A DNA stretch of 64,000 nt from Leptogorgia sarmentosa (lineage: Eukaryota), in NCBI GenBank assembly GCA_964658305.1, contig OZ210885.1, positions 20,150,001 through 20,214,000 of the forward strand, in the 5' to 3' direction. The translations under genes and the position numbers were made by a program. The notes beneath the pieces were generated by a model. It saw only the letters and a list, made by a program, of their open reading frames with translations, was not told the origin of the DNA and made no database searches. Positions 6,814 to 59,344 of the stretch are shown here, one piece after another; position 1 is the stretch's first letter; every line of letters starts with the position of its first letter.

Positions 6814-9800
6814 GGAAAACGCAATCGGACATCCGTCAAACCAAGGTGCTTCCGGAATTTCGCTACGAAGATCGATTTCCGAACGCCGAAGATAGTCCCG
6901 CGCGTTTCGCGTGTCAATTTAATTTGTGCGTGAATGCTTGCGTGTAAAACAATAAGAGCGAAGGAATCAGATAGCAATATTTTCACCAAACAGTCGGATT
7001 TTCTGCCTTAAATCGATACATGAGCAACTGGAATAGGTTAGGAATAGAATGGAGGTGTTATTTACTATATTTGTAAAAATTGAATGAAACTATTAGCCAC
7101 TATGCTATATACAATAAACTGCGTATAGTTATTAAATTTTGAACCTTCACTGGTAACTTTACGGCCTAACTAGAGGCTGGAAAAGCTGAAGTTATCTCAA
7201 ATGCATTCAATATGTCAGCTAACATGGGGAATAGAGGGGATTTTAATTTATTTTTGCTTTGTTCAGGCAAGAAATTTACAACAAAAGAAAATATTCTTGA
7301 AGAGTGGAAACACTCGTTCCCGCGAATTTTCAAATGCGCGAAATGTAAATGTAAACATTGACCTTTCGAATGTATGCAGTAGGAAACCTTTAGCTTGCAT
7401 TTGAATATTTTGTTTTCAAAACTGTTCTTTTAAGAACAACTATGCCAACAGAAAGCATAGATCTTCAGTCGATAACGTCCCTGTTCGACGTTCAGTTGTC
7501 GGATAGATCAGGACTTGTACGTGAGGTGCAAACTGCAGAAGAACTGTTGCGCCGATACGAACTGCTAACCACCACAAATTTTGCTTCTATCAAGCAAAAT
7601 AAAGGATTTGGAAACACCGGTAAGGTCTTCCAAACTGTATTCAAACCTGGAGGGGCTCGCCCTCTCCCAGTTCGAGGAGAACTGGGAGAGGGCGAGAACG
7701 GTGAAGAGCGAATAGGTGGAGCGAGAAGGGGGGAGGGAGCGAGAAGGGGGGAGGGAGGGAGGGCGGGTGTTGGGAGAACGAGGGGCAGGCAATGAGGAAG
7801 GATTGAGCAAGAAGTGGGATGGCAGTATTCAGTATGGTCCATAATTGATAATCATTACTTATCATTTTCATTGATAAAATATAGGTTATAAAATTTACAG
7901 CCACGAAACCGGACGTTGTTTAATAAACCATTGAATCACAAAGACGCTGATTAATTGAAATTGTTATAAAATTGGTTTGAACTTTGTAGATCCTAGACGT
8001 GAGAATCACAAAGTTATGTGGGAGGCAAGTTATTTGCCTTTTGACAAGGTGCCTTTCATTGTGGTTAATCACAGAGTCTATGACTGCCAGCACGGAGTCG
8101 ACAGACATCTGAGTGTTAAAAAAAGAAGCACTACGGTAAGCAAATTTTGTTCGTCTCACAAAATACTTGCAGATTAATAGTTCACCGCTACAGCATTTTA
8201 TTCGTAATAACCTTGTGTATACTATTTTTTTCCCGTCACAGGTCGGGGATCATTTTTTTAAAAGAGTTAAAAAGGGCAACATGGTGCAGGAATCTCGGAA
8301 ACTTAACTGCAAAGCACAAGTACATATGAGAGAGTACATTCAATTTCCAAGTTTTCAGGTACAAAAATAGATGCAAAGTGAATATTTAAAATAAGACTGT
8401 ATAGGCTATTGTACAACAGTATTATCGATGAATCGCCACATTAGAGGATTTTTCGGCTTATTATATTTTAATAGATTCCTGAAAAAACAGGATGGCGCTG
8501 TCAGACCCAATCCAAGAAATTGAGACAGTCCATCAAGGAAGGATTGATTGGAGAAAGGTGGATACATGTACAGTTGCCTTCTCTAGCAGAGCACGATGTG
8601 CATCCTACCGGAAGCGTATGTTCCTTTGAAGTTTTTTATTATATCAATATAATATATATAAACACAACATCGTGATATAATACCATTCTTTGTAATTAAC
8701 ATATCAAATCTTTGTTCGATAATTACATTGTGACATTAATTTTCACCTTCCTCTGTCCAGGACGGTGGTATACATCAACGTATTGACAAACAGCTTGTCT
8801 GTAAAATCGAAGAACTTGTGAATAGCGGAGCAAGGAATGTTAAAGAGATTAAAAGACACCTGAAGATCTTTGTAGAGAAAGAAATATACCGCGACAAACC
8901 AGTGCCACCAAGATCTAATCAACGATTTTATCCGTCCAAGACAACGATCCGAAGTCATATTTACAAAACTTTGGTAAAACAACGCTTTTCGATGTGTGAC
9001 CAAGAAAATCTGGAGAAGAAAGTCGAGGAATGGAGAAGTAAATGTCCCGGTGAAAAGTTCTTTTTCCGTCCTTATGTTAGCGAAGAATCAACTTGCCCCA
9101 TGGACGAAGAAGCTGACGATAACCAAGAAGAGGACGACAATATGGAGGATACCGACGACGAGAACGAAGTCACTTTGCCGACATCAAAGAATGGTTTGTT
9201 GTTCGTGCATCAAACGGATAATCAGCGACGGTTGCTTCTGAGATACGGCAATGAACTTAGTATGTTAGACGCTACCTACAAAACAACGAAATATAGTTTG
9301 GCCTTGTTCTTTCTGGTTGTGAAGACAAACGTCAACTACCAAATTGTTGCATCATTTGTGCTACAGAATGAAACTTCCGAGTCCATTGCAGAAGCCTTGA
9401 AAGTGATCTCTGATTGGAATGATTCGTGGAGTCCATCGTTCTTCATGGTCGACTACTCGGAAGAGGAAATGTCGGCGATAGCGTCTTTGTTTCCAGGTGT
9501 GCATGGTATACTTCGAAATTGGGATAAAGATATCTGGTCAAATGCGCAGTACAAATGGTTAAATTTTGTCAGAGATTAAAAAAGAAGATAATGAAGTATT
9601 ACTACTAAGAAGTGATAATAAAACTTTGTATTTATCATTGATTATGTAGAGTGCCAAGTTTATATATGTGACTTTCACAGAGAGCAAGCCTGGGAAAGAT
9701 GGCTAAGCAAGAACAGTAACGGTCTTGTTCCCAGCAAGCAAGTTATTTTAGGAAAACTTCGGGCGATTGCGAGAGCATGCACAGAGGACGAATATAAACG

Positions 9801-12800
9801 CAACGTAGTAGATCTGAAATCGCTTCCACAATGGAAAGAAAATTCGAAATTTAAAAACTGGATGGAAAAAACATGGTTACCAAAGTATAAGGTACAGTAC
9901 ATCAAAACATAATTGTACAGAAAGTAACATTCAATATTTTGATTATGAGAGAAACGTTAATTGACTTGTTTCAATTTGATTGCAATTCTAACGTCATCAG
10001 ACTAACACACTGAATTCTTTCTGCGTAATATGTACTCCTTTCCATCTTTTAACAATGGCACATATAATATGGTTTCAAATCTATAATCTATGTTCTGTCC
10101 CTAGAAATGGGTTTGGGCGTTTCGTAAAGATCGATTGTTGAGTATTATCAACACAAACAACGGCGTGGAGCGACAGAACAAAGCGTTTAAACATGAATAT
10201 CTAGAAGGTTACAAACACTCCACATTGAGCATCATGCTGACGATTTTGGTAGAAGAATTTCTTCCTGATCAGTATTTTAAGTACGTTCATTAAAAAGTTA
10301 AAATGTGATACATGGACCATGTGTGAATACATGGAGTGACAAAAGAATGCATATTTTCGTCTTAATACATATTGCCCCCCCCCCTCACCTCATCATGGGC
10401 GAATAATTGTTGAATAACCTAGTGATTCGACGCATCTTGTTGCCTAGGTACATAGAGATGAATACCAAATTGTTGAGTAGCTACCGAAGTTATAATAGAA
10501 AGATACCAACATTCCTGCACGAAAGGCCACACAGTATTATCAAACAATGTATGGAAAGGCGAGATGCATCTGGCGACATTCCACTTCAGCATGTTATTGC
10601 TGTAGATGACGAAAAAGGAGAATTCACAGTCAGGAGTCAACGAGATTCTACCAAATTGTACAGAGTCAAGTTTGGCACTGACACTAATCCAGCGATCCCA
10701 CCAAGCCGCGAGTGTTATGATTGGGAGAGGAACCGGCTTCCATGTAAGCACTTCTTCGCAGTTTTCACCCACATGCCAACTTGGTCATTTGAGAAACTGC
10801 CTGGTACATATAGGAACTCCCCTTTTTTAATAGTGGACGAACTTGTAAGTCATGCTCGTCAATACTCGATTAAAGGCGAAGATCGTCCGGACTGTCAGTT
10901 ACTTGACCTCAATACAGATGTTGTCGAAGACTCGACAGTAACAAGCCAATCAACAGTCCTTAACGATCTGCCGGAAAAGAAGAGAAACCACAGAACTGAA
11001 GCAGCTAAGAGTCGTGAAATTTTAGGGCAAATTAAGAATTTAACGTATGTTGCAGAGGGCTGGCAAGATGGTAAACTTCTTGAAAAGCTCAACAGGAAAT
11101 TGGAAAAGTGCTACCAGTTCCTTAAAGAATCTGCACCTAAGGAAAATGGTATCACCCTTGAGGTACCCCCACCAAAGAAACCTGCTGTCAAAACCCATTA
11201 CAACAGGCAATCGCCTCCAGCCACCAAAGCAATAACATACAAGAGACTTCCAACGGCACCTAAGAAGAATCCTTATTCAGGCAGATGTGGTGCAAAGGCA
11301 ATGACACTGAAGCGCAGTTATGTCTCGAGTTTACAAGCTATTGAAGAAAAGCCAGCGAAGATATCAAGAACAGAAAGTGATGTCATAACTGATGGTATTG
11401 CTGAAACAGATACAATAGCCGACACTCAGAAGGTTGAATTGACAACGACCAGTAGTGCTCCACTAGCTGAAGTTAATGTAATCACTGGTGATAACATTAT
11501 GAAACCAACAAGTCCAGCTGATGATGAGGTCGTGATAACCAGGAGCCTCCAGACAGACAAACCAAGAAGACGCAGCCAATTCAAATTGGGGGATGTCGAT
11601 ATACACACCATCATAACAGGAAAACAGTTGACTGACCACATTATCGGTATTGCGCATTCTGTATTGCACGAACAGTTTCCTGAGGCAGAAGGTTTGGAAA
11701 ACACAACTCTGGGTCCATGTTCCAACTTCACAGCACACAACGGGGAATTTTCGCAAATTCTCAACACAAGTAAAAATCATTGGGTATTGGTGTCCAACAT
11801 TGGTTCCACAGGTTCCTCAATTAACCTATATGACAGTATGTTTAAAGGACGCATTACATCTAACATAAAGAAACAGATTGCTGCTCTACTAATGGAGAAA
11901 GGGCCCACAATAACTGTGAACATACCACCTGTACAACAGCAATCAAATTGTGTGGATTGTGGTGTCTTTGCAATTGCATTTCTGGTCACGCTTTTGTTCA
12001 AACAAGATCCTGGAAAGATTACTTTCCGAGTGTGTGGCATGAGAGATCATCTACTTAGATGCCTGAAGCAGAGATCATTCCAGCCATTTCCTGTTGCAAA
12101 GCCAGCAAAGGTGAGAATTCAACATAACGCAAAGCCCAAATGTGTAAAGTTGTCATTGATGTGCAAGTGCCGGATGCCATGGATCTCACAGGATGCCCAA
12201 AACCCAGATCTATGGTGTGCTCAATGTGAATCTTGTTCTGAATGGTATCACAAGATATGTGTTCCAACCATGCCTGATGAAGTTTTCACAGTCAACAACA
12301 TGAAATGGTTCTGTCCAACATGTAAGCAGTGATCATGGTAACCTTGAACTGGATATCCTAAAGATGTAAAGGTCAATTATAACTGTAATGCTGTAAGTAA
12401 GTAAGTAAGTAGTATGTAAGGGGAGGTAGTCAATGAAATTGACAACAATCATATCAACACATCAAAGAATAAAACCATTGAAAAGGTAATAGAAACAGTT
12501 TGAAACAATGAAAAAAAAGGTGCAGACATTGGGATAACTATCATAAGAAAAGGAAGTTGGCCAGCTTGATCAAGTCAAAATATTTTCTTCACCCCTGCAA
12601 AATGCCTGAAATGCCATATGATAAAAAACGTATTATTTTAAAGTTTGTAGTTTACACCACATAATTTTATTATCGCAAAGCTTTCGATCCGTAAACCAGG
12701 ATCTTCATCAGTGCTAATAATATCTGATGATATTATTTCTACCAATATTATTTAAAAAATAAATTAATTAGTTGATTATTTTCATAATGTAAACTTTCAA

Positions 12801-13614
12801 AGAATTTATAAAAAACTTACTGATAAAGAATTTTAATTTGACTGTTTTGTCTGTACCATGCTTCTTGTTGAACTGCAGTAATGCCTCCAAGCATGCCTTG
12901 CTGTAACATATTTTGCAAATATTAGTGGTACAATCATGTAAATTGCAATGAATGAATGCACAAGTTGTTTGGGAACACAAATCAGCATGATGTGGTGGCT
13001 GGGGGAGTGAGAACATTAATATATTTGTGTTCTTTTGGTTTAAAACCACTGTTTCCAAAAGAAATTTATCAGGATTCAGGAGGAACACAAATAATATGAA
13101 TACCCTGATTACCCCCCCCCCCTAATTTCCCTAATTTCTCACTGTAGTTTCACTCCTGTCCCCTGGTAATGGCTGATCCCTGTACCCTCTTTACTCCATG
13201 TTGGAAGACACTTAGTAAAGACAACCAAGCACAATCATTACTGTTTATTAGTGTTTTTAAATTAATTTCAAAATATATAGGCACATTTTATAATAATAGA
13301 TATTTGTACGTACATTTTGCGTTGTGGTTATTTTATTTTCTCCAAGGTATTCCTCACGTTCTGTAAGAAGGCTAACATAAAAAGTTCCCGAGATAACCTA
13401 TAGTTCTATTCAATTCTTGAGGCAGAAAATCCGACTGTTTGGTGAAAATATTGCTATCTGATTCCTTCGCTCTTATTGTTTTACACGCAAGCATTCACGC
13501 ACAAATTAAATTGACACGCGAAACGCGCGGGACTATCTTCGGCGCTCGGAAATTGATCTTCGTAGCGGAATTCTGAAAGCACCTTGGTTTGACGGATGTC
13601 CGATTGCGTTTTCC
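6814..13614 (+). mobile_element. Mutator-like element (MULE), ~195-bp TIRs, 9-bp TSD
   Basis: TIRs GGAAAACGCAATCGGACATCCGTC... at 6814-7008 and 13420-13614 with few mismatches; TSD ATTCTCATA at 6805-6813 and 13615-13623; internal MULE transposase. Confidence 0.95.
7442..12332 (+). CDS. MULE transposase fusion (~1206 aa): CaRF-like N-terminus, DDE core, SWIM, Ulp1/C48-like protease, PHD finger
   Basis: Manual GT-AG splice: 7442-7619, 7990-8135, 8242-8358, 8475-8615, 8761-9496, 9650-9891, 10105-10280, 10448-12332 = 3621 nt, open. Motifs MLDATYKT, FMVDYSEEE, CDFHREQAW, TNNGVE; ECYDW..LPCKH; HWVLV..YDS..QQQSNCVDCGVF; CKC..CESCSEWYHKIC..WFCPTC. Confidence 0.88.
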
Positions 13615-15924: not shown

Positions 15925-16909
15925 GACCACTGTGAAGTTGTCACAACATTCATCACAATTCGTAAGCAGATTAAATCTGCTGATAAAGACCACATGTTGC
16001 ACGCTTACTATTTACCATCATTTAAAAGTTTTAACAGTTAAAGTGTACTATTTCTTGAGCAGATTTAACAAATTCTTCATGTTCTAACCTGCCTTAAATT
16101 CCCAAAATAGTTTCGAGAAGGTTTAGGTAATAATGACTACGAAACCTTTTGGATTCAAAGTCTCTTCTTGTTTGATATATCATCGCCAACTTTAACGGAC
16201 ATTGAGCCTGCAGTGCGCAAGGTGATGCGCGCGGTAACGTAAACAATTTTACTACATAAATGCATTGAAATATCCAAAAACCTGGCATTCTAAAGAAAAC
16301 AAATTTCTCTTTTCTATTTGCTCAAATGGAATATTGTTCTTGTGCTAAATATGCACAGTTAAATAAAAAAAAATAGCCATAAAAACGTCGACTTACTTTT
16401 CCATTTTATAAGTTTGGTTCTACCATTGTTGATCCACATAATAAAACATTAAAATGCAGCGCATTTCAAGATTTATTCGTCAGATATTGGGAAATGTGTC
16501 CATTTATTGAGATTTGCTCAAATGGAGTACAAAACGCGGAGATCTTTGCTAACTGCTCGGATAATATAGTCTGTAAATTATGAATACAACCTTTTCCATT
16601 TAGCTTCTGAAATCGAAGGATATTTGCTTTTTGGATAGACATTAATTAAAGTCATGATTACATTCATCTCTGCAAATTTTGACGAGATTCGAATCGAATT
16701 TTAAGCGTTTTAAACGAGCTTCATACGATGTATTTGGTATCAAAATACTCGCCATTATCTGTAGTTTCCAGTTCTGCGATTGGCGCTGGCGTATCGGAAA
16801 CACGATCAATACTATCAGTGGTAAATGGCATTGCAATATTTACTTCCAGTTCAATTTACCCTTCTTCCAGTAGCTTTGGCGCGAGAAAGTGCTCATTTAA
16901 AATTAAAAT

Positions 16910-19900
16910 ATGTCCGGTATTTTTAAACAAGATTATAATTTTGAAAGGTTTAAAGCTGACGTAGTTGTTGATTCAAATCATTGTCTGAATTATGTGAATA
17001 GGCAATGTGTGAGTTCGGAAGAAGTTGCTTTCACAGTTCATACAACCAACGAAGTATTGAAAAGTTGGCGAGACTATAAAGAAAAGGGTACCTTGTTACC
17101 CTTCAGCTATATCGATATTCTTAACTGTTTTCTGTCCGAAAACCACACTATGCTAGTCAAGAAAGACTGCAAAGAATAGAGGAGGTCCTGAGGAAAGTTT
17201 GCTCAAGGGTTAAAGCCAATTTTAAGGGGAAAGTTGGCCGGAGTTATGTCAAATTTGCTAGTCAAACTAAAAGAATTTCCATTCGTCATGGAGAACTTTT
17301 GACCGCAGGGGAATTAAAACGCGAGCTTGATGAACTACGTTCCACGAAAAAAACTCTAGAAGAAGACAATAAAAAGATTCATGAACAGTCCGAAGAATTG
17401 TATGAACGTTTAGTTTAAGCAGAGAAACTTAGTAAGCAGGCAGATGAAGCCTTGACAGATGCAAATGCTGTATGAATTCCAAAAAACTTCAGAATGAAAA
17501 TGCCAACTTGTGGCAATATTTTGATAAACTTACAGAGCTGGAGGGATTAAAGAACTGTGGAAAACCCATTGTTGAACTGAAAGATAGGCAAAAACGACGA
17601 AAAATAAGGGAACTGAAGACATATGTTGAGCAAGCTCTGTGGTTTGCTCAAACATTTGGTCTGAAGTTGAGCTCTGTTACATTTAAAGATGGTAGTGGCA
17701 AGTCTCATGAAATAGATTATCAGAATCAAGATGGCAGAGGAACACCATATAAGGATCTATCCGAAGACGAAAAAGAGAAGGTTCAGCAGGTCCTATTTCT
17801 CATGGACAGTTTTTGTGTAAGTGAGGCGGCTTATCACGAGTTGACAATGGTAGATGGTGGTGAAAATCTCCCTCGCTCTTACTTGGTAAAGCAGTGCAAA
17901 ACCAACCTCAACAGTTTGTGCCACATTACCCGAACCCCGGGTGTGGAAGATGGTGCGCAGCTGGATTTGATATCTGAACTCCAGAATGCAATAAGGAAAA
18001 AGGCAAGTTATCTTTTTTAACCTATATGAAAAAATTGATATAGGAATCAATTTTCTTTAAAACCTATTTGTACCCTGTTTTATAACACTAATTAATTATA
18101 AATCCTGTCCAGGTTGACTTAAAGCAGTTAAACGAAAACAGAGTTGGCAAAGTAAGAGTCAAGATCAGCGGGGATGGGGCACAAATGACCCGTATAACAA
18201 GCTTTGTGATCATGTCATTCTCGCTGATGGATTCCGATGATGTGATGTCATCAAAAGGTATTTTTGTCCTGAATTAAAGTATAAGTTATATATAGCGAGA
18301 CAGCAGGTTCATGTTTGGAAAATAATGTATCAGGGGACAAGGGTATTATTAATGGGTGATAGTCAGAATTATACTTTCTATAAATGCATTCATTGGCCTG
18401 TAATGGTTAGCCGATCTCATTGACGACGTCCATCTTGTAAATTAATTGGACATGTGCATTTTCCTATTTCAGGCAGCCACACTATTGGTATTGTGAAAGG
18501 GCAAGAAAGTTATGACTTGTTGAAAAATTCCTTTTCTGCTATATTTTCTACATTAAATGATATAATTAAGCAAGGACATATCAAAGTGGATGACATTGAT
18601 GTCCCAGTTGAGATATTCGTTGGTGGTGACTATAAGGTAATAAAGCTTGCATTTCAAATAAATTTTCCTATCAATTGGTGATGGAATGTTAAAAATACAA
18701 AAATATTTTAGTTTCTTCTTCTAATCATGGGGATGAAAACTGCAACATCGGACCATTCATGCATCTGGTGCACCATTCACAAAAACAACAGGTAGTGAAT
18801 TGAATACAAAAATATCTCATCAATTCAAGTATTAAATACACCACCCCCCTCTCCTGACATAATATAGATGACACTGATTAAAGATACTGTACTGTTTGCT
18901 AGATTTGACATGTCGAAGCCAGAGAACTATTACTCTGAAAAACCAATGGCCAGGACACTGGAAGAGATTCGAAAATGTGCCTTAAAGCAAAGTTGCTCTT
19001 GCGTTCACCAGCCTTTGCTCAATGTTCCATTAGATAATATTGTCCACGATGAATTACATCTGATGCTGGGGATCACAGGTAACTTGATAACACCTTAAAC
19101 ATTCATGAGGAATATAAACTAGTTATATGCTTAAGACTGAAATGTCAAAAAGTGAATTTATTCAATAAATCATTAGCTGCTACACAGCCAAAAATGCCCC
19201 ACTTGCAACTAGCTTGTTGACAACTTGCATCAGGCTTGTTATCAAGCTGTATCAGGATGTGTTGGCATGGCTTGCATCAGCTTGATGATAACAAGCCTGA
19301 TGCAAGTTGATTTATCAACTTGCAACAAGTCTGCAGATGACAAGTTGCAACAAGCTTGATTTTAACATTTCTCCAATAAAATGTGAGAATTAATTAATCA
19401 AGGGGTTTTCCCAGGATACACCAGTTTTTCCTTTTCACTAGAAGCTAGCCCCTAGACAACTAGAAAAATTTGTTAGTTGTGTTATTCAACCAGTAAACAT
19501 TGATCTTGACAGATGTCTTGACTAAGAATCTTGTGATGGCAGCAATAAACTGGGATAAATCAGAGAACTTTAACAAACCACCATGTGAAAGAACAATTTT
19601 CATCTTGACTCATTAATTGCCGCTATAAACAGCCGTGGAGTCAGTTTCAAAGTATGGGAAAAGAAAAATGTGGATGGTGGAGCAAGTGGCACCTATGATT
19701 TTACTAGCCTGATGGGAACTGACAAGAAACTTCTGCTGAAAAGTCTCCCACAAAAATTAGAGGGCGTTGTTAAGCCAGATTATAGTGAGAGAGTTATAAA
19801 TATCTGGAAGGTTAGTTGTTAATTTACTTGTGCCCGTACCCACCTTATTACAATCCATGTAGATTAATCGAGTGGATTTGAGTTCATTAGGAAGTATAAT

Positions 19901-20265
19901 TCTATGTATTTCTCAATTTTATAATTACAGAATTTCTCGGAACTATACACACTATTGAACAAACAAGAGCCATCTGATGATTTCATTGCTAATTACTTTG
20001 AAAAGGTTTGTGCATGTATGTAATATGTATTACTAGTACATTAAATGCCTAGAATAGTTACACATTTGTTAAATAGTGTTTTTCATGTACCTCTGTTGTT
20101 TGACATATTTTCAGGCGAGGAAATGGATAGAACTATTTACTTCTCTTGGTGGAGTGTGTGATGGATATCGCAAGTCCAATGTCACGCCATATATGCATGC
20201 AATGGTATATCATGCACCCACCTTCATGAGAAAACACAGTGGCATAAAAAAATTCACAGGCCAAG
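16910..20265 (+). pseudogene. RAG1-core-like DDE transposase, multi-exon, 3'-truncated
   Basis: Exons ~16910-18002, 18113-18257, 18473-18636, 18712-18791, 18903-19078, 19513-19810, 19931-20005, 20115-20265 give KISGDG, GGDYK, CIWC, DELHLML, TSLMG, TPYMHAMVYH, FTGQG in RAG1 motif order (ESCDG, GYDEK, CTLC, DALH, MNG, YFHKTLAH, EGNE). Stops and frameshifts present; the exon with the catalytic Glu is missing. Confidence 0.75.
19183..19367 (-). mobile_element. Truncated CACAGCCAAAAA-ended MITE (intronic)
   Basis: Inverted copy of ~20396-20613; internal CAAGCTTG/CAACTTGC repeats; only one end present. Confidence 0.8.
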
Positions 20266-20328
20266 GTGGGTATTACAAGCACACAGAATAAATATACATT
20301 ATTTTTTAATAAAGTGGAATATAATATA

Positions 20329-20613
20329 CACAGCCAAAAATACCACAGGCTTGTTGCAAGTTGATGAAATTGACAAGCTGTTCCAACTTGTTCCTGTTAA
20401 AATCAAGCTTGTTGCAACTTGTCATCTGCAGACTTGTTGCAAGTTGATGCATCACCTTGCATCAAGCTTGTTGACTCAAGTCTGTTCTCAACAACTGGCA
20501 TCAGGCTTGTTATCATCAAGCTGATGCAAGCCATGTGAACACATATACTGACACGGCTTGATAACAGGCCTGATGAAAGTTGTCAACAAGCAAGTGGAGC
20601 GTTTTTGGCTGTG
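20329..20613 (+). mobile_element. CACAGCCAAAAA-ended MITE with TA flanks (CMC/EnSpm-like termini)
   Basis: TA|CACAGCCAAAAA ... TTTTTGGCTGTG|TA; lies where both genes of the host transposon break off. Confidence 0.85.
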
Positions 20614-20926
20614 TAATCGTATATAAACAAATATGCATCAGCATCTACTTTACATACCTTATTAACTCTTCGCTAAGATGATCTGAAGGTTCCCATGTAC
20701 AGCTGCTTAAAGGCCAGCCACTCCATTTGATCAGAAACTCATCATCCTTTAAAGTGCTTATGAAACGAAATTTTTGGTCAAGGGTTTTATATTAATTCTA
20801 ATAGTTTTTGAGAAGCTGAATGCGATGGGTTGATTTATTTTTTCTTATTCCGATTGGAAAGTATATATTTTTCACTTCAAAAAATGCAATTTCCGACGAA
20901 AAGGCTTCCTATAGCGCGCGCGGCCT

Positions 20927-20946
20927 GTGACGTCACTGGTTAGAGT
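20927..20946 (+). promoter_or_regulatory. CRE-containing 20-bp subterminal motif upstream of Kolobok transposase
   Basis: GTGACGTCACTGGTTAGAGT; identical inverted copy at 25904-25923. Confidence 0.65.
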
Positions 20947-20966
20947 GAGCTTCGATCATCATCAAG

Positions 20967-23900
20967 ATGGCGTGTAATTCAAACTTGAGCTCGCAAAAGA
21001 AACCGAAACAACTGGGGAAATATTGCGTTGCTGGCGGGCCTGGAATGGCAAGTTGCAAAAATAATTCGCTATCTACGGGAATATCAATGCATCTCTTTCC
21101 AAAATCAAACGAAAAGTTGAGAAATCTGTGGGTAAAGTTCGTGCAAAGGCATCGCCCTGACTGGCACGCATCTGCATATTCCGCGCTTTGCTCAGCCCAT
21201 TTTGAAAATCATTGTTTTACTCAACGGCTTGATACTGGGCTGGAAATTGGAAATAACAGTAAAACAAAACGATGGCTTAACAAGGATGCGTATCCGACCG
21301 TCGATACTGTGGTACCTTCTCAAACAACTCGAGAAATATCTGACAGAGAACACAGAAAGGTATGTAAATACAAATTCACAATAGGGAGCGGTCTATATAT
21401 TAATATCCTCAACGTTAATGATATTGGTTGTATTAAGTCTATGTTGATATCGAGATATATTTGATATAGCGTCCTTTCACGTTGTTTATTAGATTTTGAG
21501 AGATGTTTTGAAGCCAGGTATTCCTTCGACTTCAATAGCCAGCGCACGCGATTTTGCCAGTGAAACGCTGTCTGTGACAGTCGAACTCCCGAACGTTACA
21601 GTGAACCCTCCTACCACTCCAGAAAACAAGTCGAAAGACCTGGATTTATACAAGGAACGATTGCGCAAAAGTAAAGAGAGAAATGTTAGCTTGAGGAAAA
21701 AGCTTTTTCACGAACGTGACGAGAGGCGTAAGCTGTTCAAGGTATAGTACAGACAGTACAAAGTGTACAGTCGCGTCATATTTCATCGAAGTAAACAATA
21801 CTTGATACAACGAAACAACGCAACAATAAAGCGAATTATTAGAAAGACTTAATTGTTAGGTCTTTATTTGAGATGTTTTGTGTTTTCTAGCTGCTAGAAT
21901 CCAAAGAGGCGACAGGCGAGGGAAGACACGGAACGACGAAGACTGCCACAGTCAGGAAATGTGAGGGTGAGAATGTAGAGGAAGTCCAGGACTATGACAG
22001 TGACGAAGGAAGCATTCACGAGGAACACGACCCAGATTGGGACGTACTGGAAGCTGAGAATGATGCCGATGGGGATGATGCAGACATCCCAAATACAACA
22101 CCCCATTCAAGAAACCTAATAAGGTACTGTCATTTGCAACTAAGGATGAAGGCATGCAGGTCATACTAAAGTAAAACAATCAATTTTCATTTACTTTTTT
22201 ACATAGTTTGCCTTCAGATGTCAAGTGCCAGGATGAACCCAAATTCATAGTGTTTCATAGCATGCTGTTGTCCCTATTTTCTTTGTTCTGTTTTACATGC
22301 AAAAAAGAAAAACCTAAAGTAGACATGTACCAAAATGGAACCATGGTTACGGTTGTCCAGCACTGCGATGCTTGTGGTGTAGACGCATTTAAATGGAGGA
22401 GCCAACCATATATTTTTGGCCGATATCCAGCTGGCAATCTCTTGCTTTCCTTTGCCATAGTGATGGCTGGTGCCTCAGTCAGCAAGATCATTCTTGTTTT
22501 CAAACACATGGGTCTTGCTGTCTACACCTCACGAACCTTCTTCTACCACCAAAGCAACTTTGTATTTCCTACCATCCTAAACCACTGGGAATCATATCAG
22601 GCCAAATTGATTGAGTCACTTCGACCTATCACTGACACAGTGTGGTGTGGAGATGGAAGGTTTGATTCAATGGGCCACTCTGCCAAGTACGGAGTGTATA
22701 CAATGTTTTGTACCACAATAATGAAAATTGTTCACTTTGATTTGCTACAAGTAAGTATGAAATATATTGCATATACTGCATGTTACCCTAGGGAAAGCTA
22801 CACTATTTTCCACAAAAATCTCACAATGAATTGTCAGGTGGTTCCTTGTTTTGCTGGAATGCAAAAAGATACAAAATGTGATATTGTTGTTACGGTAGAC
22901 TCCATTACAAAACAAAATTGATTTACAGTGTACCCAAATCAGAATGACCAATAATTGCACAATTTCCACACATTGCAGGCAAATCAGACTGGTAACAGCA
23001 ACGCAATGGAATTGGAAGGGGCAAAGGGTTGCTTTCATTTTTTGTTGACTGTTGCTGGCTTAACAATCCCAGTATTTATATCTGATCGGCACCACGGGAT
23101 AACAAAGTGGATCAGAGAATCTCATCCAGCAATTCAGCATTTCTTTGATCAATGGCATATTGCTAAAGGCATTGTCAAAAAAATGCTGGCTGCAAGCAAA
23201 GAGAAGGGCTGTGAACAAATTGGAGAATGGACAAGAGCAGTGAGGAACCATGGTTATTGGTGTTCAACATCCACAGTGAAAGGCTTTGGCAATATGATCC
23301 TGGCAAAGTGGAAATCCTTCATGCGACATGTTTCTAATAAACACGACCATCACCCAGACACCTTGTTTCCAAAGTGTGCACATGATGAACTTGAAAGTCA
23401 ACGAAAATGGATCAAAGTCGGTATGTCTAAAGCGACCATTTATTGTAGTTTGTTTAATGAGAACAAACCTCTGAGCCCCTTAGCGGTTACTTTTTGGCCA
23501 TTTTCTTGGAAAACGTTGACCGTTGGGATGTTGTATTTTTACAAAATAACCCAACATTTGGGAATATCTTTTATAGGAACCAGAGCTTACGACAAGATGC
23601 AGGGCATCATTATGAAGACCTCCCTTTTGAGCAGTGTGAAGAAACTCTCTCCTGATGCACAGACAAGTTCATTGGAGGGATTTCACTCCACCCTTAATCA
23701 ATGGCATCCCAAAATGATTTGCTTTTCATGGCTTGGGACATATTGCAGGTGTTTTTCTTATATGTCTTTCCCACCAAGTATTCTCAGTAAAAAATAACTT
23801 TTTCTCTGCGAGTTGAACTTGTAGTAAACATATTTATTTGTTGTTTTTTATCTTTACTCTTTAGACATATACTAGCTACCCTCCACTTCAACGAGAATGT

Positions 23901-24594
23901 GAACCGAAGCACAAAAAAAACAAGAGATGGCAAGAACTATGTCAGTGTGACATATCCAAAATTTAAATTTGGGGAAGAAGTTGTGCGGAATATTCCTGTA
24001 CCACCAACATATGGTATGTTTGATCCTATTCTTTAATCTAACTATAAAGCTAGAGAATTTTACAAAATAAGGCAGTTGTACTAAATAACATTGCTCAAAC
24101 AGTAACTGTGTGCCTTTAATTGGTTATTAATCTAACTTTTCTGATGTTTTACTTTATAGGCTATGTAGAAGATTTGAAACATGTTTTGTGTAGTACCTCT
24201 GAAAATGACCTGGACACTATCAGGAAGAAGTACAAGCGAAAAGTCCCCGAACCCCTAAACAGCCAATTTGCCAATAAAACTCCTCGGGATGATGCTATCA
24301 TTAAGAATGCAGCTCGAAAACGAAAAGTAGCAGAATTGTTTCCATCAGGTATTCTATTTTCTCTCAGTAAGAAATTCACTTGCCTAACAGCCTGCCGATA
24401 CATATTATGCTAAATCCAATTCAAATTTACAGGTGAAGTACAAACTGGGGAGATGGCAAAAGAAATACAGTTACAACAACAACCAAGACAGAAAAAAAAC
24501 AAGAAACTGCAAAAAGTGCAAGCAACCCATGAAAGGTCATCCTCGGTCTCACTGCCCTGATGTTGCAATTCCACCCTCAGACACCAACGAATGA
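20967..24594 (+). CDS. Kolobok transposase (THAP + DDE), 9 exons, near-intact
   Basis: Exons 20967-21359, 21493-21741, 21891-22123, 22207-22750, 22979-23420, 23577-23748, 23865-24013, 24160-24348, 24433-24594. THAP (C..C, FP, W, LCSAHF, AYPT); GDGRFDSMGHSAKYG, ISDRH, FFDQWH, TSSLEGFHS. Exons 1-8 are open; a 1-nt slip in an A8 run in the last exon shifts a CKKC..H..C knuckle out of frame. Confidence 0.88.
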
Positions 24595-24624
24595 TGTATC
24601 TATGAATACTTCCAAAACTTTAGA

Positions 24625-24738
24625 TTGTAAATAGTTTCAGCTCTTCATGTTTGGGTGACATAAACTTAATGTCAATTTGTAAATAGTTCAGCTCTCTCTG
24701 TTTGTGTGACATAAACTTAATGTCAATTTGTAAATAGT
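24625..24738. repeat. ~51-bp tandem repeat between the converging Kolobok genes
   Basis: TTGTAAATAGTT(T)CAGCTCT...GTGACATAAACTTAATGTCAAT twice plus a partial copy. Confidence 0.85.
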
Positions 24739-24990
24739 ATTATTTGTTTTTCCACTGTATTGCTGGTACAGTAAGTAGTACATATCATTGCAGTATTTTT
24801 ACCAGTCACAGATTGTCTATAATTTTAGGAAAATGACAGCTATTGTTTTAACTGTTTAATCATTCCAGCCAGTTGGATATATATATATATATATATATAT
24901 ACCGGTATATATATTTATTTGCACCAAAATACATGCCACTTATCAGGCTGGTCCAGATTGTTGTTTTGATGTGTACACTATACCCACACT

Positions 24991-25827
24991 TTAGTCGTCA
25001 CTCGCTCTTTCTTGACCAGAAATATATCCAACATTGCTGCCTGTTGGGAATGTTTTCCTTATTGTGTGGTATATGCAAGCAGAGAGAGGTCTGGTGTTTT
25101 CCCATCCCATTTCCCCAAAGAGCCATCTTGCTAACCATCTGTAAGCAACAGCTCGCAGAAACCTATCAGGAAAATATGGGTGAAGATGGTAGTGACGTAC
25201 AGTGTATAATCTATCCAACATCAATATAAGTCAGATTATTCTATATTGAAAAATCTAGCACTTACTCATTTTCTGTATGGCCATACTTTCGGTAGCGTTT
25301 CCCACTCTTGTCTCGTAATAAAGGTCCAACTTGCAGCAGAACTGTTCGGTTCGTAAGTGGAGCGAAGTCACGGTGGCTTAAAATACATTCAGTATTCATC
25401 CCCTCGAACGTAAATTTTCCTGTGGCTTCGAGTATTTCTTTGCAGCATCGAAATTCTCTAGCGCCAACAAGTAGCAAATCATCGCATCCACCACATGTAC
25501 ACCTACAGTATAAACCCGAGTATTTTATCGCTTCAGACGAAGAATATTTACCAGTAAAATATAAAACCCTTACCATTGTTGCACTGGGATTTGCTTTTCG
25601 AATCGTTGCTCCAAGACAGGTCGAGAGATCCCATCTTCATCTAACTCTTCGTCGCTTGCTGCCTCGCTTTGGTTGTCACTAGAGCTGGCCAAGGGTTCGT
25701 CTTGGTAGGGCAAGAAATTGTCTTCAATCTTCAATTCATCGCTCTCGTTTGAACTGTGTTGGTCACTGCTGATGCTGCTGGCAGATACCTGATCAGAATT
25801 ATCGGACTCTGAAGCCACGTCAGACAT
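24991..25827 (-). CDS. KolX-type protein (P2X7 C-terminal 'ballast'-like Cys-rich domain), 220 aa
   Basis: Exons 25827-25574, 25502-25266, 25162-24991 = 663 nt, open. PYQDEP, WCTCGGC, E..CC, CI..H..F, R..AYR...W..G..G...R..L.AC....IR..FP. Confidence 0.88.
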
Positions 25828-25903
25828 TTTTTTGGTTTTAAAAGAAGCTGCTTCAGTATACCACACGTAAAAGTAACTAAATTTCTGTTGTTGTTCCAGC
25901 ATG

Positions 25904-25923
25904 ACTCTAACCAGTGACGTCAC
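25904..25923 (-). promoter_or_regulatory. CRE-containing 20-bp subterminal motif upstream of KolX
   Basis: Exact reverse complement of 20927-20946. Confidence 0.65.
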
Positions 25924-26445
25924 GTCTCGGTCCCAGGGCCCGGATTCCTTTTTCTCAAAAATTCAAATTTTCAAACGCTGAAAACGGGTACTTATGTTCA
26001 AGAACATAAAAAATTAACCAGCGCATCGTGCTCAGCGCTCCAAAAACCCTCAGAAACGACCGAAAAATTAAAATCGAAATCTCGTTTCATGAGCACTTTA
26101 AATTTACAGTCCGTGTTAACTTAAGATATTAAAAATTAACTGATTAGAAGCTGTAACACCGTGAAATTTTCACTTACATATTTTGTTCGTCGCATTGAAA
26201 TTATTCTTTCGACGATATAGGTCTTGGGAAGTATCTTTTTCCTTCTTTTCGGTGCTGTGTGATACAACATCACTGAAGAAATGTTGTTCAGTTGCTTGTA
26301 ATCAACATTCCTGTCATTTCCATTTCTTTTTGCCGCCATATTGAAACACGCTCGCGAGAAATTAGCGGGCAGTTTGCGGGCTGTATTAATGGCAATAACC
26401 GCTTTACAGCATGTCCGACACATGACCGGCAAAGTTGGCGATGTA

Positions 26446-29400
26446 CAATTAGTAGTTTACACCTTATATGCTACAGGCCCGACATTTAGTAATTGTCTAA
26501 TACTGAAATTTAGTAAGTGTCCAAATTTATACTTTTAATATATACATATATATAAGAGAATGTGCACACAGATGAGCAGAAGCTATATCATGTAAAGAAC
26601 CTTAATAATTAGAATTGTCAAAAGGAGGGGATGGCTGGCCTGTGGCTCACTACATATAACATCTAATAATAGATCTCCATATATTATAATTACATTCAAA
26701 CAGAAACTAATTCTTTATACTGAAGAACTTTAATAAGTTACAAAAGTCCTTGTTTCAACCTGAGAAACAAATTAATGAAACTCATTTATCTTTGAATTTT
26801 TCGAACACTAGACATACAATTTTCACTTCAAACTATACTTAAAAACATTTCATTGACAATCACAACAATGTATTGCTTGCGTTTAATATTTTTATACACT
26901 GCCATGTTTTTGCCATTTTAAAGTAAAGGTTTGATATGAGAATTAGTCTGCAACTCAAACGGAAATGCATGTGAACTTCAAGTCCTTTTTTTCATTACCT
27001 ATTCTATAGAAATTTTTTATTTTCACATATGTTATTCAGAAAACACTGATATATCATACGATGTATAGCTTGGCCTGGGGACCGAATCGTATCAATGCGT
27101 TTTTTTACTCTGAACATTGATGTAATATGATGCGTTTCTGAGGAATGTGCATGCATGTTAAATTTCAAGTCTTTTTCTCGCTTCATTCTAGCCATAGATT
27201 TTTCATTTTCCAATATATTATACATATTTCAACGATAATTCCAACAATGTATTGCTTGCCTTTAATATTTTTATACACTGCCATGTTTTTGCCATTTTAA
27301 AGTAAAGGTTTGATATGAGAATTAGTCTGCAACTCAAACGGAAATGCATGTGAACTTCAAGTCCTTTTTTTCATTACCTATTCTATAGAATTTTTTTATT
27401 TTCACATATGTTATTCAGAAAACACTGATATATCATACGATGTATAGCTTGGCCTGGGGACCGAATCATATCAATGCGTTTTTTTCCTTTGAACATTGAT
27501 GTAATATGATGCGTTTCTGAGGAATGTGCATGTTAAATTTCAAGTCTTTTTCTCGCTTCATTCTAGCCATAGATTTTTCATTTTCCAATATATTATACAT
27601 ATTTCAACGATAATTCCAACAATGTATTGCTTGCGTTTAATATTTTTATACACTGCCGTCTTTTTGCCATTTTAACGTAAAGGTTTGATATGAGAATTAG
27701 TCTGCAACTCAAACGGAAATGCATGTGAACTTCAAGTCCTTTTTTTCATTACCTATTCTATAGAATTTTTTTATTTTCACATATGTTATTCAGAAAACAC
27801 TGATATATCATACGATGTATAGCTTGGCCTGGGGACCGAATCATATCAATGTGTTTTTTTTACTTTGAAAATGAATGAAGAAAATAATCAAATTGAATCG
27901 TTTTAATAGGTAATGAAAAAAAGGACTTGAAGTTCACATGCATTTCCGTTTGAGTTGCAGACTAATTTTCATATCACACGTTTACTTTAAAATGGCAAAA
28001 ACACGGCAGTCTACAAAAATATTAAGGACAAGCAATACATTGTTGGAATTATCATTGAAATATGTATAATATATTGGAAAATGAAAAATCTATGGCTAGA
28101 ATGAAGCGAGCAAAGACTTGAAATTTAACATGCACATTCCTCAGAAACGCATCATATTACATCAATGTTCAAAGTAAAAAAAACGCATTGATATGATTCG
28201 GTCCCCAGGCCAAGCTATACATCGTATGATATATCAGTGTTTTCTGAATAACATATGTCTATAGAATAGGTAATGAAAAAAAGGACTTGAAGTTCACATG
28301 CATTTCCGTTTGAGTTGCAGACTAATTCTCATATCAAACCTTTACTTTAAAATGGCAAAAACACGGCAGTGTATAAAAATATTAAAGGCAAGCAATACAT
28401 TGTTGGAATTATCATTGAAATTTGAAATATGCATAATATATATTGGAAAATGAAAAATCTATGGCTAAAATGAAGCGAGAAAATGACTTGAAATTTAACA
28501 TGCACATTCCTCAGAAACGCATCATATTACATCAATGTTCAAAGTAAAAAAACGCATTGATATGATTCGGTCCCCAGGCCAAGCTATACATCGTATGATA
28601 TATCAGTGTTTTCTGAATAACATATGTGAAAATAAAAAATTTCTATAGAATAGGTAATGAAAAAAAAGGACTTGACTAATTCTCATATCAAACCTTTACT
28701 TTAAAATGGCAAAAACACGGCAGTGTATAAAAATATTAATAGCAAGCAATACATTGTTGGGATTGTCAATGAAATGTTTTTAAGTATAGTTTGAAGTGAA
28801 AATTGTATGTCTAGTATTCAAACAATTCGAATTAAGTGATTAAAAGAGATTTAAATCAATTTCTCAGGTTGAAACAAGGACTTTTGTAACTTATTAAAGT
28901 TCTTCAGTACAGGGTGTCTCAAAAAAAAGGTAATCGAACTTTGGCACGCCATTGTGCGTTGATTACTGGGTGTATGAACGTGATTTTTGCATGGTCATAA
29001 AGATCAAGGTCTTAGCAGTTGAATGACATATTTGTTGTACGATATGGAAGAAAATCAAGCAAATGCGAGCGTGTTGAAAAATCTCGGTGAAAAACGTATT
29101 CTTTCACCTCTGTGCCTAATTAAAGCAGTGCATAACAAAAGAAAAATGCAATTCATCACGAATGTGTCATGGTAACAAAGATGTTATCAGGATTATTAAT
29201 AATTATGCATAATCAGGTCGATTGTTGAAGGGAAGGTCGTCATCTTCGAGTCCCAGAGGGAGTTAATTTTGAATAAGTTTAGCTGCAATTCTCAGAGGTG
29301 AAAGAATGCGTTTTTCACCGAGATTTTTCAACACGCTCGCATTTGCCTGATTTTCTTCCATATCGTACAACAAATATGTCATTCAACTGCTAAGACCTTG

Positions 29401-29770
29401 ATCTTTATGACCATGCAAAAATCGCGTTCGTACACCCAGTAATTAACGCACAATGGCATGCCAAAGTTCGATTACCTTTTTTTTGAGACACCCTGTATAA
29501 AGAATTAGTTTCTGTTTGAATGTAATTATAATATATGGAGATGTTATATGTAGTGTGCCACAGGCCAGCCATCCCCTCCTTTTGACAATTCTAATTATTA
29601 AGGTTCTTTACATGATATAGCTTCTGCTCATCTGTGTGCACATTCTCTTATATATATGTATATATACGGTGATTAAAAGTATAAATTTGGACACTTACTA
29701 AATTTCAGTATTAGACACTTACTAAATGTCGGGCCTGTAGCATATAATATAAGGTGTAAACTACTAATTG
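26446..29770. mobile_element. Foldback-type non-autonomous element with TA TSD and internal ~355-380-bp tandem units
   Basis: TA|CAATTAGTAGTTTACACC ... GGTGTAAACTACTAATTG|TA. Left arm (~26446-27870; units at 26863, 27242, 27617) mirrors right arm (~27905-29770). Inserted in the inner part of the right TIR of the RAG1-like element. Confidence 0.9.
28910..29495. mobile_element. Tc1/mariner-type MITE, ~200-bp TIRs, TA TSD
   Basis: TA|CAGGGTGTCTCAAAAAAAAGG ... CCTTTTTTTTGAGACACCCTG|TA; the empty site TTCTTTATACTGAA is present in the left foldback arm (~26711-26724). Confidence 0.93.
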
Positions 29771-30052
29771 TATATATCAAAGAAGAAGAGACTTTGAATC
29801 CAAAAGGTTTCGTAGTCATTATTACCTAAACCTTCTCGAAACTATTTTGGGAATTTAAGGCAGGTTAGAACATGAAGAATTTGTTAAATCTGCTCAAGAA
29901 ATAGTACACTTTAACTGTTAAAACTTTTAAATGATGGTAAATAGTAAGCGCGCAACATGTGGTCTTTATCAGCAGATTTAATCTGCTTACGAATGTGCGA
30001 TGAATGTTGTGACGAATGTTGTGATGAATGTTGTGACAGCTTCACAGTGGTC

Positions 30053-33898: not shown

Positions 33899-35989
33899 GG
33901 GGCGAGGGTAATAATTCCGCCATAGCGGAGTCCAAAGTTGTTGCTCGATTTGGCGGCCATTTTGGGTCAAGGTGTAAGAGAATTTATATAAGGGTGGTCA
34001 TCACTGATTTCAAAATTATGGTGGACTATCATGAAGAGCCGAAGGTATTTAAAGCTTTTGGGCCTTTGGAAAGGCGAAAACAAAGACAAGACCTATGCTG
34101 TAAGACTTGTAAAGCCTTCTCAGAAGATATAAAACGCTGAGAAAGGGGAACAGACAACTACGGATTGAAACACAAGGTAAGTTCGTCAATGTGTTGCCGG
34201 CAGTGAACTGTGTTTTGCGTGTTTACTATCTACAGTCTACTATTTGTATGAAAGGTCGCCGTAGCCGCATTTAATCTATTCACAGCTCAATTCCAGAGTA
34301 TAAGTTATCATTTTAAAGGCAGGACTTCACAAAATTTTTACAAACCGTTTACCCCAAAAGAACACGAGGTAACATTGGCTGGAAATTGTTTCATATCAAA
34401 GACTGACTCAATTAAACCGTTTTATGCAAATAAATGTAGCATTTCGCACCCAATTCAAGTTTATATTAGTCCTAATAACGTACGGATAACAAACGGTTCT
34501 CGAAATTTGAAAAAAAAGCCAATAAAACAAAGATAAAAGCTGATATTTTGACAGTTTTCAAAAAATTACAGAAATATGAATTTTCATTCGTGTTGCCATG
34601 ACAACAACCTCAGGCGGCTTTGAAGTACAGTACTTCATGTTCCAAAAATATAGTTGCATTAATTGTTTAGTAAGGTGAGGGGTTGCTGCATGTATGTATT
34701 TCCAGTATTTATATAATTAAAAATTATTAGAAAAACATATGCATTTGTTTTTTATAGTTGTCGTGTCGTGTAGTGTGTGTATATATAACTGTTGTAGCTA
34801 TGCACTTAGCCATATAGCTACAGGATTATGTGAATATACATGCATGGATATGAATAACAACATATGCACTGAAAATGAAAACACTTAAAATAGTAGATGT
34901 TAATAAAATTATTGATTTTATGGTAGGGATACTGTTAATGGATTTGAAGAGGAAGATTATCTGCATATCAATTGTATCGATAAAAGCTGAAGGACGCAAG
35001 CTAATCCCTTCATGAATCACATTTCTGTAGCAAAGATTATGATGCAATAAAAAAAATTCAGTTCTCCTTGCAATAATTTCAGGTAGTTGTTCCATAAAAA
35101 CATGGCTAGTAACCAAAAAACTAATATTTTGTTTATATAATAGATTTATTATCCCCAAGCCAGGGTGCAAAGTGCCGTCCGGGCGTTAGCCTGGGGTGAG
35201 GGTAATAATTCCGCATAGCGGAGTCCAAAGTTGCTTGATTTGGCTGCCATTTTGGGTCATGGTGCATCGTAGGTCATCACTGATCTCTAAAATATAGCGG
35301 ACTATCATGAATAGCCGAAGCTTTTTAGAACTTTCAAGGAGCTTCTTAAAGCTTTGGAAAGGGGAAACAAAGACAAGATCTGTGCGTAAGTCTTGAAAAG
35401 CCCTCTTAGATGATATAAAACGCTGAGAAATGGGACAAAACGACTATGGATTGAAACACAGGATACGTTCGTCAATATATTGTCGGCAGTGAACTTTTGT
35501 TTTGCATATATTTACTATTTTCATGAAAGGTCGCCGATCGTAGCGGCGTTTAATCAATTCACGGCTCAATTCCAGAGTATAAGTTTATGTTTTTAAATGC
35601 AAGACTTCACAAAATATTTACAAACTTCAATCAAAAGAGCATGAGCGAACACTGGAGTCTCGCTGGAAATTGTTTCATATCAAAGACTGGCTTGAATATT
35701 TAAAACGTTGTATGCAAATAAATGTAGTATTGCGCACCAAATTCGAGTTTATATTAGTGCTAATAATGTACGGTTAACAAATGGTTCTCCAAATTTAAAA
35801 AAATCCAATAAAACCAAGATAAAAGCTGATATTTTGAGTGTTTTCAAAAAAATACAGAAATATGAATTCCGATCGTGTTGCCATGAGAACAACCTCAGGC
35901 GGCTTTAAATACTTCATGTTCCAAAAATATAGTTGCATTTTTTTGGGAGTAAGGCGAGGTAAGGTTGTTGCATATATGTATTTCTAGTA
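33899..35989 (+). repeat. Two diverged ~0.8-kb direct repeats (~33899-34707 and ~35193-35989)
   Basis: Shared colinear blocks GAGGGTAATAATTCCGC..GGAGTCCAAAGTTG, GATATAAAACGCTGAGAAA, CTCAATTCCAGAGTATAAGTT, AACAACCTCAGGCGGCTTT. Confidence 0.85.
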
Positions 35990-53445: not shown

Positions 53446-53495
53446 AAAGCAATTTTTGTGTGTGTTTTTGTCATTTGTGATCTAACGTTTTAATC

Positions 53496-54253: not shown

Positions 54254-54256
54254 AGA

Positions 54257-54793: not shown

Positions 54794-54850
54794 ATAAAGA
54801 AAAAGTATTCACATTTAGTTTGACATTGAATCAGAGAAGAGGTCTTCAAA

Positions 54851-57835: not shown

Positions 57836-57843
57836 CCCCTAGG

Positions 57844-58545: not shown

Positions 58546-58564
58546 ATGAATGTATGTTTTGTTT

Positions 58565-59193: not shown

Positions 59194-59344
59194 GTCAATG
59201 TGTCTTATATTCCAAATCTGTTATGGTATCGTATTTTATAGTACAAATAACGTGCAGTAGTTTGCACTCTTTCCAATATTCTCCATCTGTTTGCAAATGT
59301 CCCAATGACATTTCCGATAATGTAACAATAGCATAGTACAGGGT

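Follow-up and report, generated by a model that had tools for sequence, protein, structure and literature searches.

Does a transposase of the RAG1 type travel with a chromatin reader other than RAG2? Among the partners of RAG1-type enzymes, RAG2 alone is well known. The question is raised by a stretch of 64,000 nucleotides of Leptogorgia sarmentosa contig OZ210885.1 (hereafter the window; coordinates are window positions), in which a transposon at 16181-26443 carries a plus-strand transposase gene and, tail to tail with it, a minus-strand gene for a chromodomain protein (the second gene). The window copy is dead and partly deleted. A survey of its relatives revealed that it belongs to a real and conserved lineage of the CMCT/RAG1 clan, whose transposons have two genes, the partner being a chromodomain gene; this lineage is apparently undescribed in the open papers that were searched.

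Conservation of the second gene

A metagenome scan for transposase loci yielded 79 loci in 35 families at 90% identity. A locus was regarded as informative when the transposase end was complete and was followed by 1 kb or more of sequence (22 loci in 14 families). With search profiles derived partly from the same loci that were counted, it was found that the second gene follows the transposase in 18 of the 22 informative loci and in 12 of the 14 families. The 54 matches, distributed over 25 of the 79 loci, all lie downstream of the transposase on the opposite strand; none was found in 132,618 nt searched upstream, versus 124,792 nt searched downstream. The linked families span 39-76% identity in the transposase core and share the orientation and the intron positions. 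The four informative loci without a detectable second gene are L009 and three loci of family 12, a family in which L032 keeps a remnant. Also in family 12, L020, L028, and L034 have a different plus-strand frame downstream of the transposase, possibly an insertion or a replaced partner.

Is the second gene maintained together with the transposase? The identities of the two genes correlate (Mantel rho 0.615, p 0.0001) over 13 families, which are those with a long C-terminal match among the 16 families with matches. The transposase and second-gene trees are concordant in their close clades but not at deeper nodes. Among the five closest pairs, the proportion of nonsynonymous differences (pN, 0.20-0.26) is about a third of the proportion of synonymous differences (pS, 0.68-0.80). 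The second gene is under purifying selection, and selection retains its protein as a component of the element. The linkage, the co-divergence, and the purifying selection bear out the original prediction, made from the window alone, that the chromodomain gene may be a feature of the family, and they speak against a one-off capture.

The second protein consists of a short N-terminal motif, a chromodomain, and a C-terminal domain of 140 amino acids, the last of which is deleted in the window copy. Desmophyllum, Dendronephthya, and Paramuricea have annotated full-length homologues of 214-240 amino acids, and Acropora has a shorter one. In the predicted structure (predicted local distance difference test score, pLDDT, 88.5), the chromodomain best matches those of HP1, Chp1, and Polycomb (Z 6.8-7.0). 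The chromo fold and the three-residue aromatic cage of a canonical HP1/Polycomb chromodomain are both found, with the cage positions taken from HP1; the second and third positions are aromatic in all 16 loci with exon 2. The chromodomain likely binds methylated histone H3. It resembles readers of H3K9/K27 methylation and not the PHD finger that reads H3K4me3.

The 140-residue domain had no match in Pfam, among PDB sequences, in a Foldseek search of the PDB, or among viral proteins, and a wide structure search was filled by the chromodomain, so that this domain was barely probed. No catalytic motif is evident among its invariant residues, and the language-model look-alikes stayed below the mark of 0.9.

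Transposase family and predicted fold

Is the transposase really of the RAG1 type? Of 646 candidates, 55 proteins were found in a search with exon 1; their identity reaches 91%, and the named ones come from Paramuricea and Oculina. A profile search reached 613 clusters at E 1e-30, and 7,047 at the looser E 0.001. The family profile of 65 rows matches RAG1 at E 1.4e-8 and the RAG1L of ProtoRAG at E 1.4e-6. In the same alignment, the catalytic D, D, and E are present in 64, 64, and 56 rows, respectively (eight rows are gapped at E), and CxxC in all 65. The spacing between the second Asp and the Glu (D2-E) is 235-275 residues, with a median of 257. This is close to the 253 of RAG1 and longer than the 206-214 of Transib (PMC1131882).

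The fold was predicted for a full-length relative, P0052, in place of the broken window copy (mean pLDDT 88.4). The model aligns with RAG1 at Z 27.9 (root-mean-square deviation 3.3, 443 residues aligned), followed by ProtoRAG (Z 24.8), HzTransib (23.0), P (13.4), ISCth4 (10.1), and Hermes (8.8). Thus, the claim of a RAG1/Transib-type transposase is upheld by a relative whose predicted structure places RAG1, ProtoRAG, and Transib far above P, and the transposase is predicted to have a RAG1/Transib fold with DDE and zinc sites. The solved structures among the matches were those of RAG, Transib, P, ISCth4, and hAT only, with none from CACTA, Chapaev, Mirage, Plavaka, or ESTA. Therefore, RAG1 is the closest solved fold, which is not to say that the family is sister to RAG1. 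Identity over these matches is low, at 10-18%, and structural alignments with RAG1, ProtoRAG, and Transib give 13-18%. RAG1L and Transib share a mean of 26% identity and 34-37% within each group (PMC9435367), so the family falls below that range, although the two measures are not identical. The closeness to ProtoRAG implied earlier is not sustained at such an identity, nor by the ends and target duplication, which are unlike those of RAG/Transib.

The CMCT clade comprises EnSpm/CACTA, Mirage, Chapaev, Transib, and Plavaka, together with ESTA and Lanisha, and is defined by C(2)C and H(3-4)H between D2 and E, 5'-CA..TG-3' ends, and target duplications of 2-5 bp (PMC12730594). The Cys and His motifs that had been quoted as signs of RAG1 are common to this whole clade, according to the same source. 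Pfam searches with the 65 members gave only sub-threshold RAG1 matches, in six of them, and no match to an EnSpm/CACTA, Mirage, Plavaka, ESTA, or Lanisha family. The N-terminus of the P0052 model is a small alpha/beta domain with a long coiled coil, and none of 10 proteins has a CxxC (as in Chapa or RING cysteines) in its first 250 residues. A basic helix aligns with the nonamer-binding region of RAG1, an alignment without significance when taken alone. A small profile of 16 rows matched only coiled coils in the PDB. No relatives were found in prokaryote and viral contigs by a word-based, weak search, and a single-protein metagenome scan and exon-1 homolog search found nothing.

Many full-length transposases (P0042, P0056, P0061, P0062, P0064, P0066, and P0068) have a helical tail resembling SAP/Rho_N in sub-threshold Pfam matches, possibly an extra DNA-binding module that replaces the C-terminal tails of RAG1L and Transib. 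P0042 and window positions 18424-18678 also match DUF1280 weakly (E 0.0015-0.04), which may be a related family of uncharacterized transposases.

The two genes of the window copy

The plus-strand transposase gene of the window has eight exons (16910-20265) with canonical splice sites, including one GC donor. In confirmation of what had been noticed at first, the motifs SGDG, GGDYK, CIWC, DELH, YMHAMVYH, and FTGQ follow one another in this order. The minus-strand second gene has two exons (26339-26178 and 20746-20658), and its exon 2 alone matches Pfam Chromo at 37.4 bits (E 2.5e-9; cut-off 25.1 bits). The gene model and this match confirm a convergent gene whose two exons make a chromodomain.

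16910..18002, plus strand: transposase exon 1; N-terminal domain, coiled coil, and basic helix resembling the nonamer-binding domain (NBD); frame shifts and a stop; GC donor
18113..18257, plus strand: transposase exon 2; predicted first catalytic Asp, SGDG; joined to exon 3 in an X19 contig
18473..18636, plus strand: transposase exon 3; predicted second catalytic Asp, GGDYK
18712..18791, plus strand: transposase exon 4; predicted zinc ligands CxxC
18903..19078, plus strand: transposase exon 5; DELH; joined to exon 6 in an X19 contig
19513..19810, plus strand: transposase exon 6; one frame break
19931..20005, plus strand: transposase exon 7, from the gene model
20115..20265, plus strand: transposase exon 8; predicted zinc ligands HxxxxH; the last exon left, ending two codons ahead of the catalytic Glu
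26178..26339, minus strand: second gene exon 1; carries the N-terminal motif, which is conserved, and the first strand of the chromodomain
20658..20746, minus strand: second gene exon 2; encodes the chromodomain's C-terminal half; an X19 contig has it spliced to exon 1 and to a putative third exon

Pieces of exon 1 are 83% and 71-81% identical to P0001, and an X19 contig ends at 18002. In run X19, whose RNA nature is a tool's guess (share 0.15), contigs join transposase exons 2 and 3, transposase exons 5 and 6, and, at the predicted bases, exons 1 and 2 of the second gene. These joins indicate that both genes are spliced in a related organism. One contig runs past 20658 into sequence that is not in the window, and its first codons resemble, by eye, the third exon of relatives.

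The transposase has frame breaks in exons 1 and 6. As had also been noticed at first, both tail-to-tail genes are truncated at the 3' end: the exon with the catalytic Glu is missing, and the third exon of the second gene is absent from the window. It is plausible that recombination or aberrant transposition at a miniature inverted-repeat transposable element (MITE, 20329-20613) caused this internal deletion. The copy in L066 (5121-9088) and L068 is likewise internally deleted: the 3' ends of both genes are gone, and both termini are kept.

Ends, host element, and target duplication

Where does the element end? The original prediction gave it long terminal inverted repeats. The outer inverted repeat of 242 nt at 15926/30051 belongs instead to a foldback element, and the RAG1-fold element is bounded by short repeats that begin with CAT.

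16181..16193, plus strand: left terminal inverted repeat; 13 bp perfect, about 22 bp imperfect, beginning CAT; start of an X10 contig at 16181; relatives carry the same terminal motif
26431..26443, minus strand: right terminal inverted repeat; pairs with the left repeat; cover of other runs stops there
15926..16180, no strand: outer left arm of the host foldback, not part of the RAG1-fold element; a 9-bp direct repeat lies outside; 15962-16142 absent in X4 and X10
26444..30051, no strand: remaining left arm of the host foldback, its palindromic centre of 375-bp repeats, and its right arm, not part of the RAG1-fold element

A perfect inverted repeat of 13 bp was reached in only 2 of 2000 shuffles. 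When 16181-26443 is excluded, the left foldback arm (15926-16180 and 26444-26720) aligns unbroken to the right arm (29495-30051), with 500 of 532 positions identical (94%). In run X1, the site after 16180 is empty. The cover by runs X4 and X10, which come from other organisms, begins at about 16181 and ends at 26443/26444, with flanks that differ from those of the window. Thus, the long repeats are ruled out as ends of the transposase element, and the foldback element is its host. Summed read depth in X1, a measure of cover that is not equal to copy number, is about 15- to 50-fold greater over the foldback arms than over the genes.

A CACTGTG heptamer in the long repeat was considered as an end resembling a recombination signal sequence (RSS) and was rejected; it has no flanking duplication and is part of the host foldback. 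An RSS-like 12/23 asymmetry was also rejected: a short motif recurs 11 nt inward at the right end in the window, but four other end pairs, compared by eye, have no common offset.

Without its nested Kolobok, the element measures 4,914 nt; the length is 5.2 and 6.8 kb in relatives that retain both ends and both genes. The relatives share the end CATNGCCAGAAAT, on the basis of 15 distinct aligned ends from 11 families, to which L061 adds a twelfth family. Since the terminal motif was chosen after the first matches, the independent evidence is that flanks diverge exactly at the C in families 2, 17, and 24. In these three families, copies with identical ends have different flanks, which is the sign of mobility. 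A scan with the terminal motif also matched three unrelated places, two in transposase coding DNA and one at window position 52811.

Compared with the other foldback arm and with the X1 empty site, the insertion in the window added a single T, i.e., a duplication of 1 bp, which may have been a 2-bp TA that later lost one base. Elsewhere, the duplication is 1 bp in L066/L068 and L041, 2 bp in L045, and absent in L004, L040, and L044. L040 and L044 share the left but not the right flank, and therefore these multi-copy contigs are partly chimeric. A 5-bp duplication was found in none of the seven insertions with both ends. The empty site is known only for the window; a search for empty sites matching the flanks of relatives found none.

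Nested inserts and neighbouring elements

The window copy is a repeat within a repeat. The nest at 15926-30051 sits within the reverse-transcriptase region of a retroelement labelled BEL/Pao-type from motifs by eye. The inserts that the original prediction had removed are borne out by the TTAA duplication of the Kolobok and by the Kolobok-free site in X4 and X10 contigs.

20753..26097, plus strand: nested Kolobok; THAP domain, Mutator-like DDE match, TTAA duplication; in intron 1 of the second gene
19183..19367, no strand: partial MITE with a CACAGCC end; in transposase intron 5; high depth in X4 and X10
20329..20613, no strand: MITE flanked by TA, with CACAGCC at its ends; at the internal deletion by which both genes lost their 3' ends

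The Kolobok has a plus-strand, multi-exon THAP and DDE gene and a convergent minus-strand, Cys-rich second gene at about 25000-25830. The two MITEs are copies of one high-copy family with CMCT-like termini, and the second lies in the same intron in X4. The host foldback is non-coding, with inverted arms of about 550 nt and a central palindrome of 2.2 kb; it has very high depth in X1, is absent from X4 and X10, and is Mutator-like by the length of its 9-bp flanking repeat. Because the target is almost a palindrome, this repeat can also be read as 7, 5, 3, or 1 bp. Inside the foldback, a small element (28910-29495) with inverted arms of about 205 nt and TA flanks resembles a Tc1/mariner MITE.

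Further away, the stretch at about 51000-60000 is, by eye, Polinton/adintovirus-like, with an integrase that has its own chromodomain (53311-53436) and with capsid-like, protease-like, and packaging-ATPase-like frames. It is interrupted by a 1.5-kb element with inverted arms of 151 nt (51753-53306). Another element lies between inverted repeats of 198 nt with 97% complementarity (6814-13614), and a direct repeat of about 840 nt with 80% identity and 1286-nt spacing lies at 33899-35989.

Possible roles of the second protein

What could the second protein do for the transposon? The reading that I favour, and regard as probable with some reserve, is that the window holds an inactive copy of a two-gene cut-and-paste family in which a predicted RAG1/Transib-fold transposase would be steered or licensed on chromatin by a co-inherited chromodomain protein. 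By analogy with RAG and Transib biochemistry, a dimeric transposase would bind the ends of 13-22 bp through its NBD-like region, and the fold suggests that nicking and hairpin formation would precede strand transfer, as in those enzymes. The chromodomain would bind H3K9me or H3K27me, and the 140-residue domain would link it to the transposase, so that insertion would favour repeat-rich silent chromatin. That the second protein is a chromatin-targeting cofactor is put forward tentatively, as an idea that falls just short of being probable. By analogy to RAG2 and to the integrases of chromoviruses, targeting or licensing is judged most likely; self-regulation or anti-silencing comes next.

Several points weigh against the favoured reading. 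The full-length homologue P0220 has lost two of the cage aromatics. Four of the 22 informative loci (two of the 14 families) have no detectable second gene, and the linkage count used profiles built partly from the counted loci. The solved matches rank the model against RAG, Transib, P, ISCth4, and hAT only, and so give no rank to CACTA, Chapaev, Mirage, Plavaka, or ESTA; the modelled protein is P0052 and not the window copy. The single insertion site with a known empty site amounts to an anecdote.

Alternatively, the second protein might be a self-regulator or an anti-silencing factor that binds silent marks on the element's own copies and alters their expression without joining the transposase. 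The H3K9/K27me-type chromodomain and the separate transcription unit suit this idea, as do fungal CMCT elements carrying TET/JBP genes proposed to counter silencing (PMC12730594). A weak language-model lead likens the C-terminal domain to clusters resembling DEDD exonucleases; the score of 0.83 is below the 0.9 mark, and a second sequence did not reproduce the lead. The invariant residues of this domain show no evident catalytic motif. Accessory cargo moves between superfamilies (PMC12730594), whereas the tight co-divergence seen here suits a partner better than swappable cargo; self-regulation is doubtful to unlikely. A captured host gene that is a passenger in a few copies is very improbable: chromodomains are common and some families have no second gene, but the gene is present in 12 of the 14 informative families with the same orientation and intron positions, under purifying selection, and in co-divergence with the transposase.

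Is the family already catalogued as a CMCT lineage, for example as a coral subgroup of EnSpm, Chapaev, or Transib in Repbase, with the second gene noted in its entries? The CA..TG ends, together with the two zinc motifs, agree with how CMCT is defined, and the family is so large (613 clusters at E 1e-30) that coral repeat libraries probably include members. On the other hand, no paper on it was found in the open literature, the duplication is outside 2-5 bp in the one resolvable case, Chapa/RING cysteines are absent from the first 250 residues in 10 of 10 proteins, and the Pfam matches to RAG1 are sub-threshold (6 of 65). I consider a catalogued lineage rather doubtful. The supplements of RAGL/Transib surveys may hold members of the family. 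A description of the two-gene family was not found in the open literature, a search that lay outside Repbase, Repbase Reports, Dfam, and most subscription papers; "chromo" does not occur in PMC4411706 and PMC7204232 and occurs once each in PMC12730594 and PMC1131882.

A bolder idea, which I think unlikely, is that a widespread animal lineage within the RAG1/Transib clan, not named before, arrived independently at a two-component transposase like that of RAG, with the chromodomain protein as an obligate chromatin-reading subunit, and integrates with a 1-bp stagger unlike that of any described member of the clade. A separate, large, and still mobile lineage in which the RAG-like layout has another reader would mean that the pairing arose more than once. 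The favoured reading would make the family a DNA transposon with a candidate built-in chromatin-targeting module, whose partner's role is testable with intact copies of 5-7 kb, and would explain cnidarian chromodomain proteins now annotated as uncharacterized host genes. A 1-bp duplication, if it holds, would be an unusual target geometry for the RAG1/Transib fold.

Comparison with known systems

Like the CMCT clade, the family has accessory genes, ends of the CA..TG type (which read CAT..ATG both in the window and in relatives), and a DDE core whose C(2)C and H(3-4)H motifs lie between D2 and E; PlavakaB also begins with CAT (PMC12730594). It may differ in the duplication (1 bp in the one resolved case, versus 2-5 bp in the clade), and it differs in the chromodomain partner, which is not seen in the clade in the available part of that source. 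Chapaev and Chapaev3 are recognized by an N-terminal Chapa zinc finger, with or without a RING (PMC4411706), and this finger was not found here (none of the 10 proteins has CxxC among its first 250 residues). Transib (HzTransib; subgroups I and II of PMC9435367) shares the fold (Z 23.0), the motifs, and the short terminal repeats, but the identity is 15-18%, and the present family has a longer D2-E spacing, a second gene, CAT ends, and no 5-bp duplication.

The termini of RAGL and Transib begin with CAC, like the RSS heptamer (PMC7204232, PMC1131882). With RAGL/ProtoRAG/TransibSU and vertebrate RAG1-RAG2, the family shares the predicted core fold, the DDE triad with a C2H2 zinc site, and a long D2-E insertion. 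Also shared are two convergent genes, which in RAGL/ProtoRAG as here lie within terminal repeats, and a second gene with a module of the histone-reader type. The identity is 13-17%, and the partner here is a chromodomain with a 140-residue domain without a family match, whereas theirs is a kelch propeller with a PHD finger. In addition, the ends are CAT and not CAC, no conserved asymmetric ends were seen, there is no 5-bp duplication, and the N-terminus is a coiled coil and not Chapa/RING. Since CAC ends, the 5-bp duplication, and the RAG2 and Chapa domains are all absent, the family is, by these criteria, neither RAGL, canonical Transib, nor Chapaev.

In PIF/Harbinger, the transposase needs a second protein (Myb/SANT). 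The two-protein layout is thus shared, although the transposase and the partner are unrelated to those described here. Chromodomain Gypsy integrases (chromoviruses) likewise tie a chromodomain to a DDE enzyme, in association with targeted insertion (PMC12477816); these are retroelements with the domain fused to the integrase, while here the chromodomain is encoded by a separate gene of a DNA transposon.

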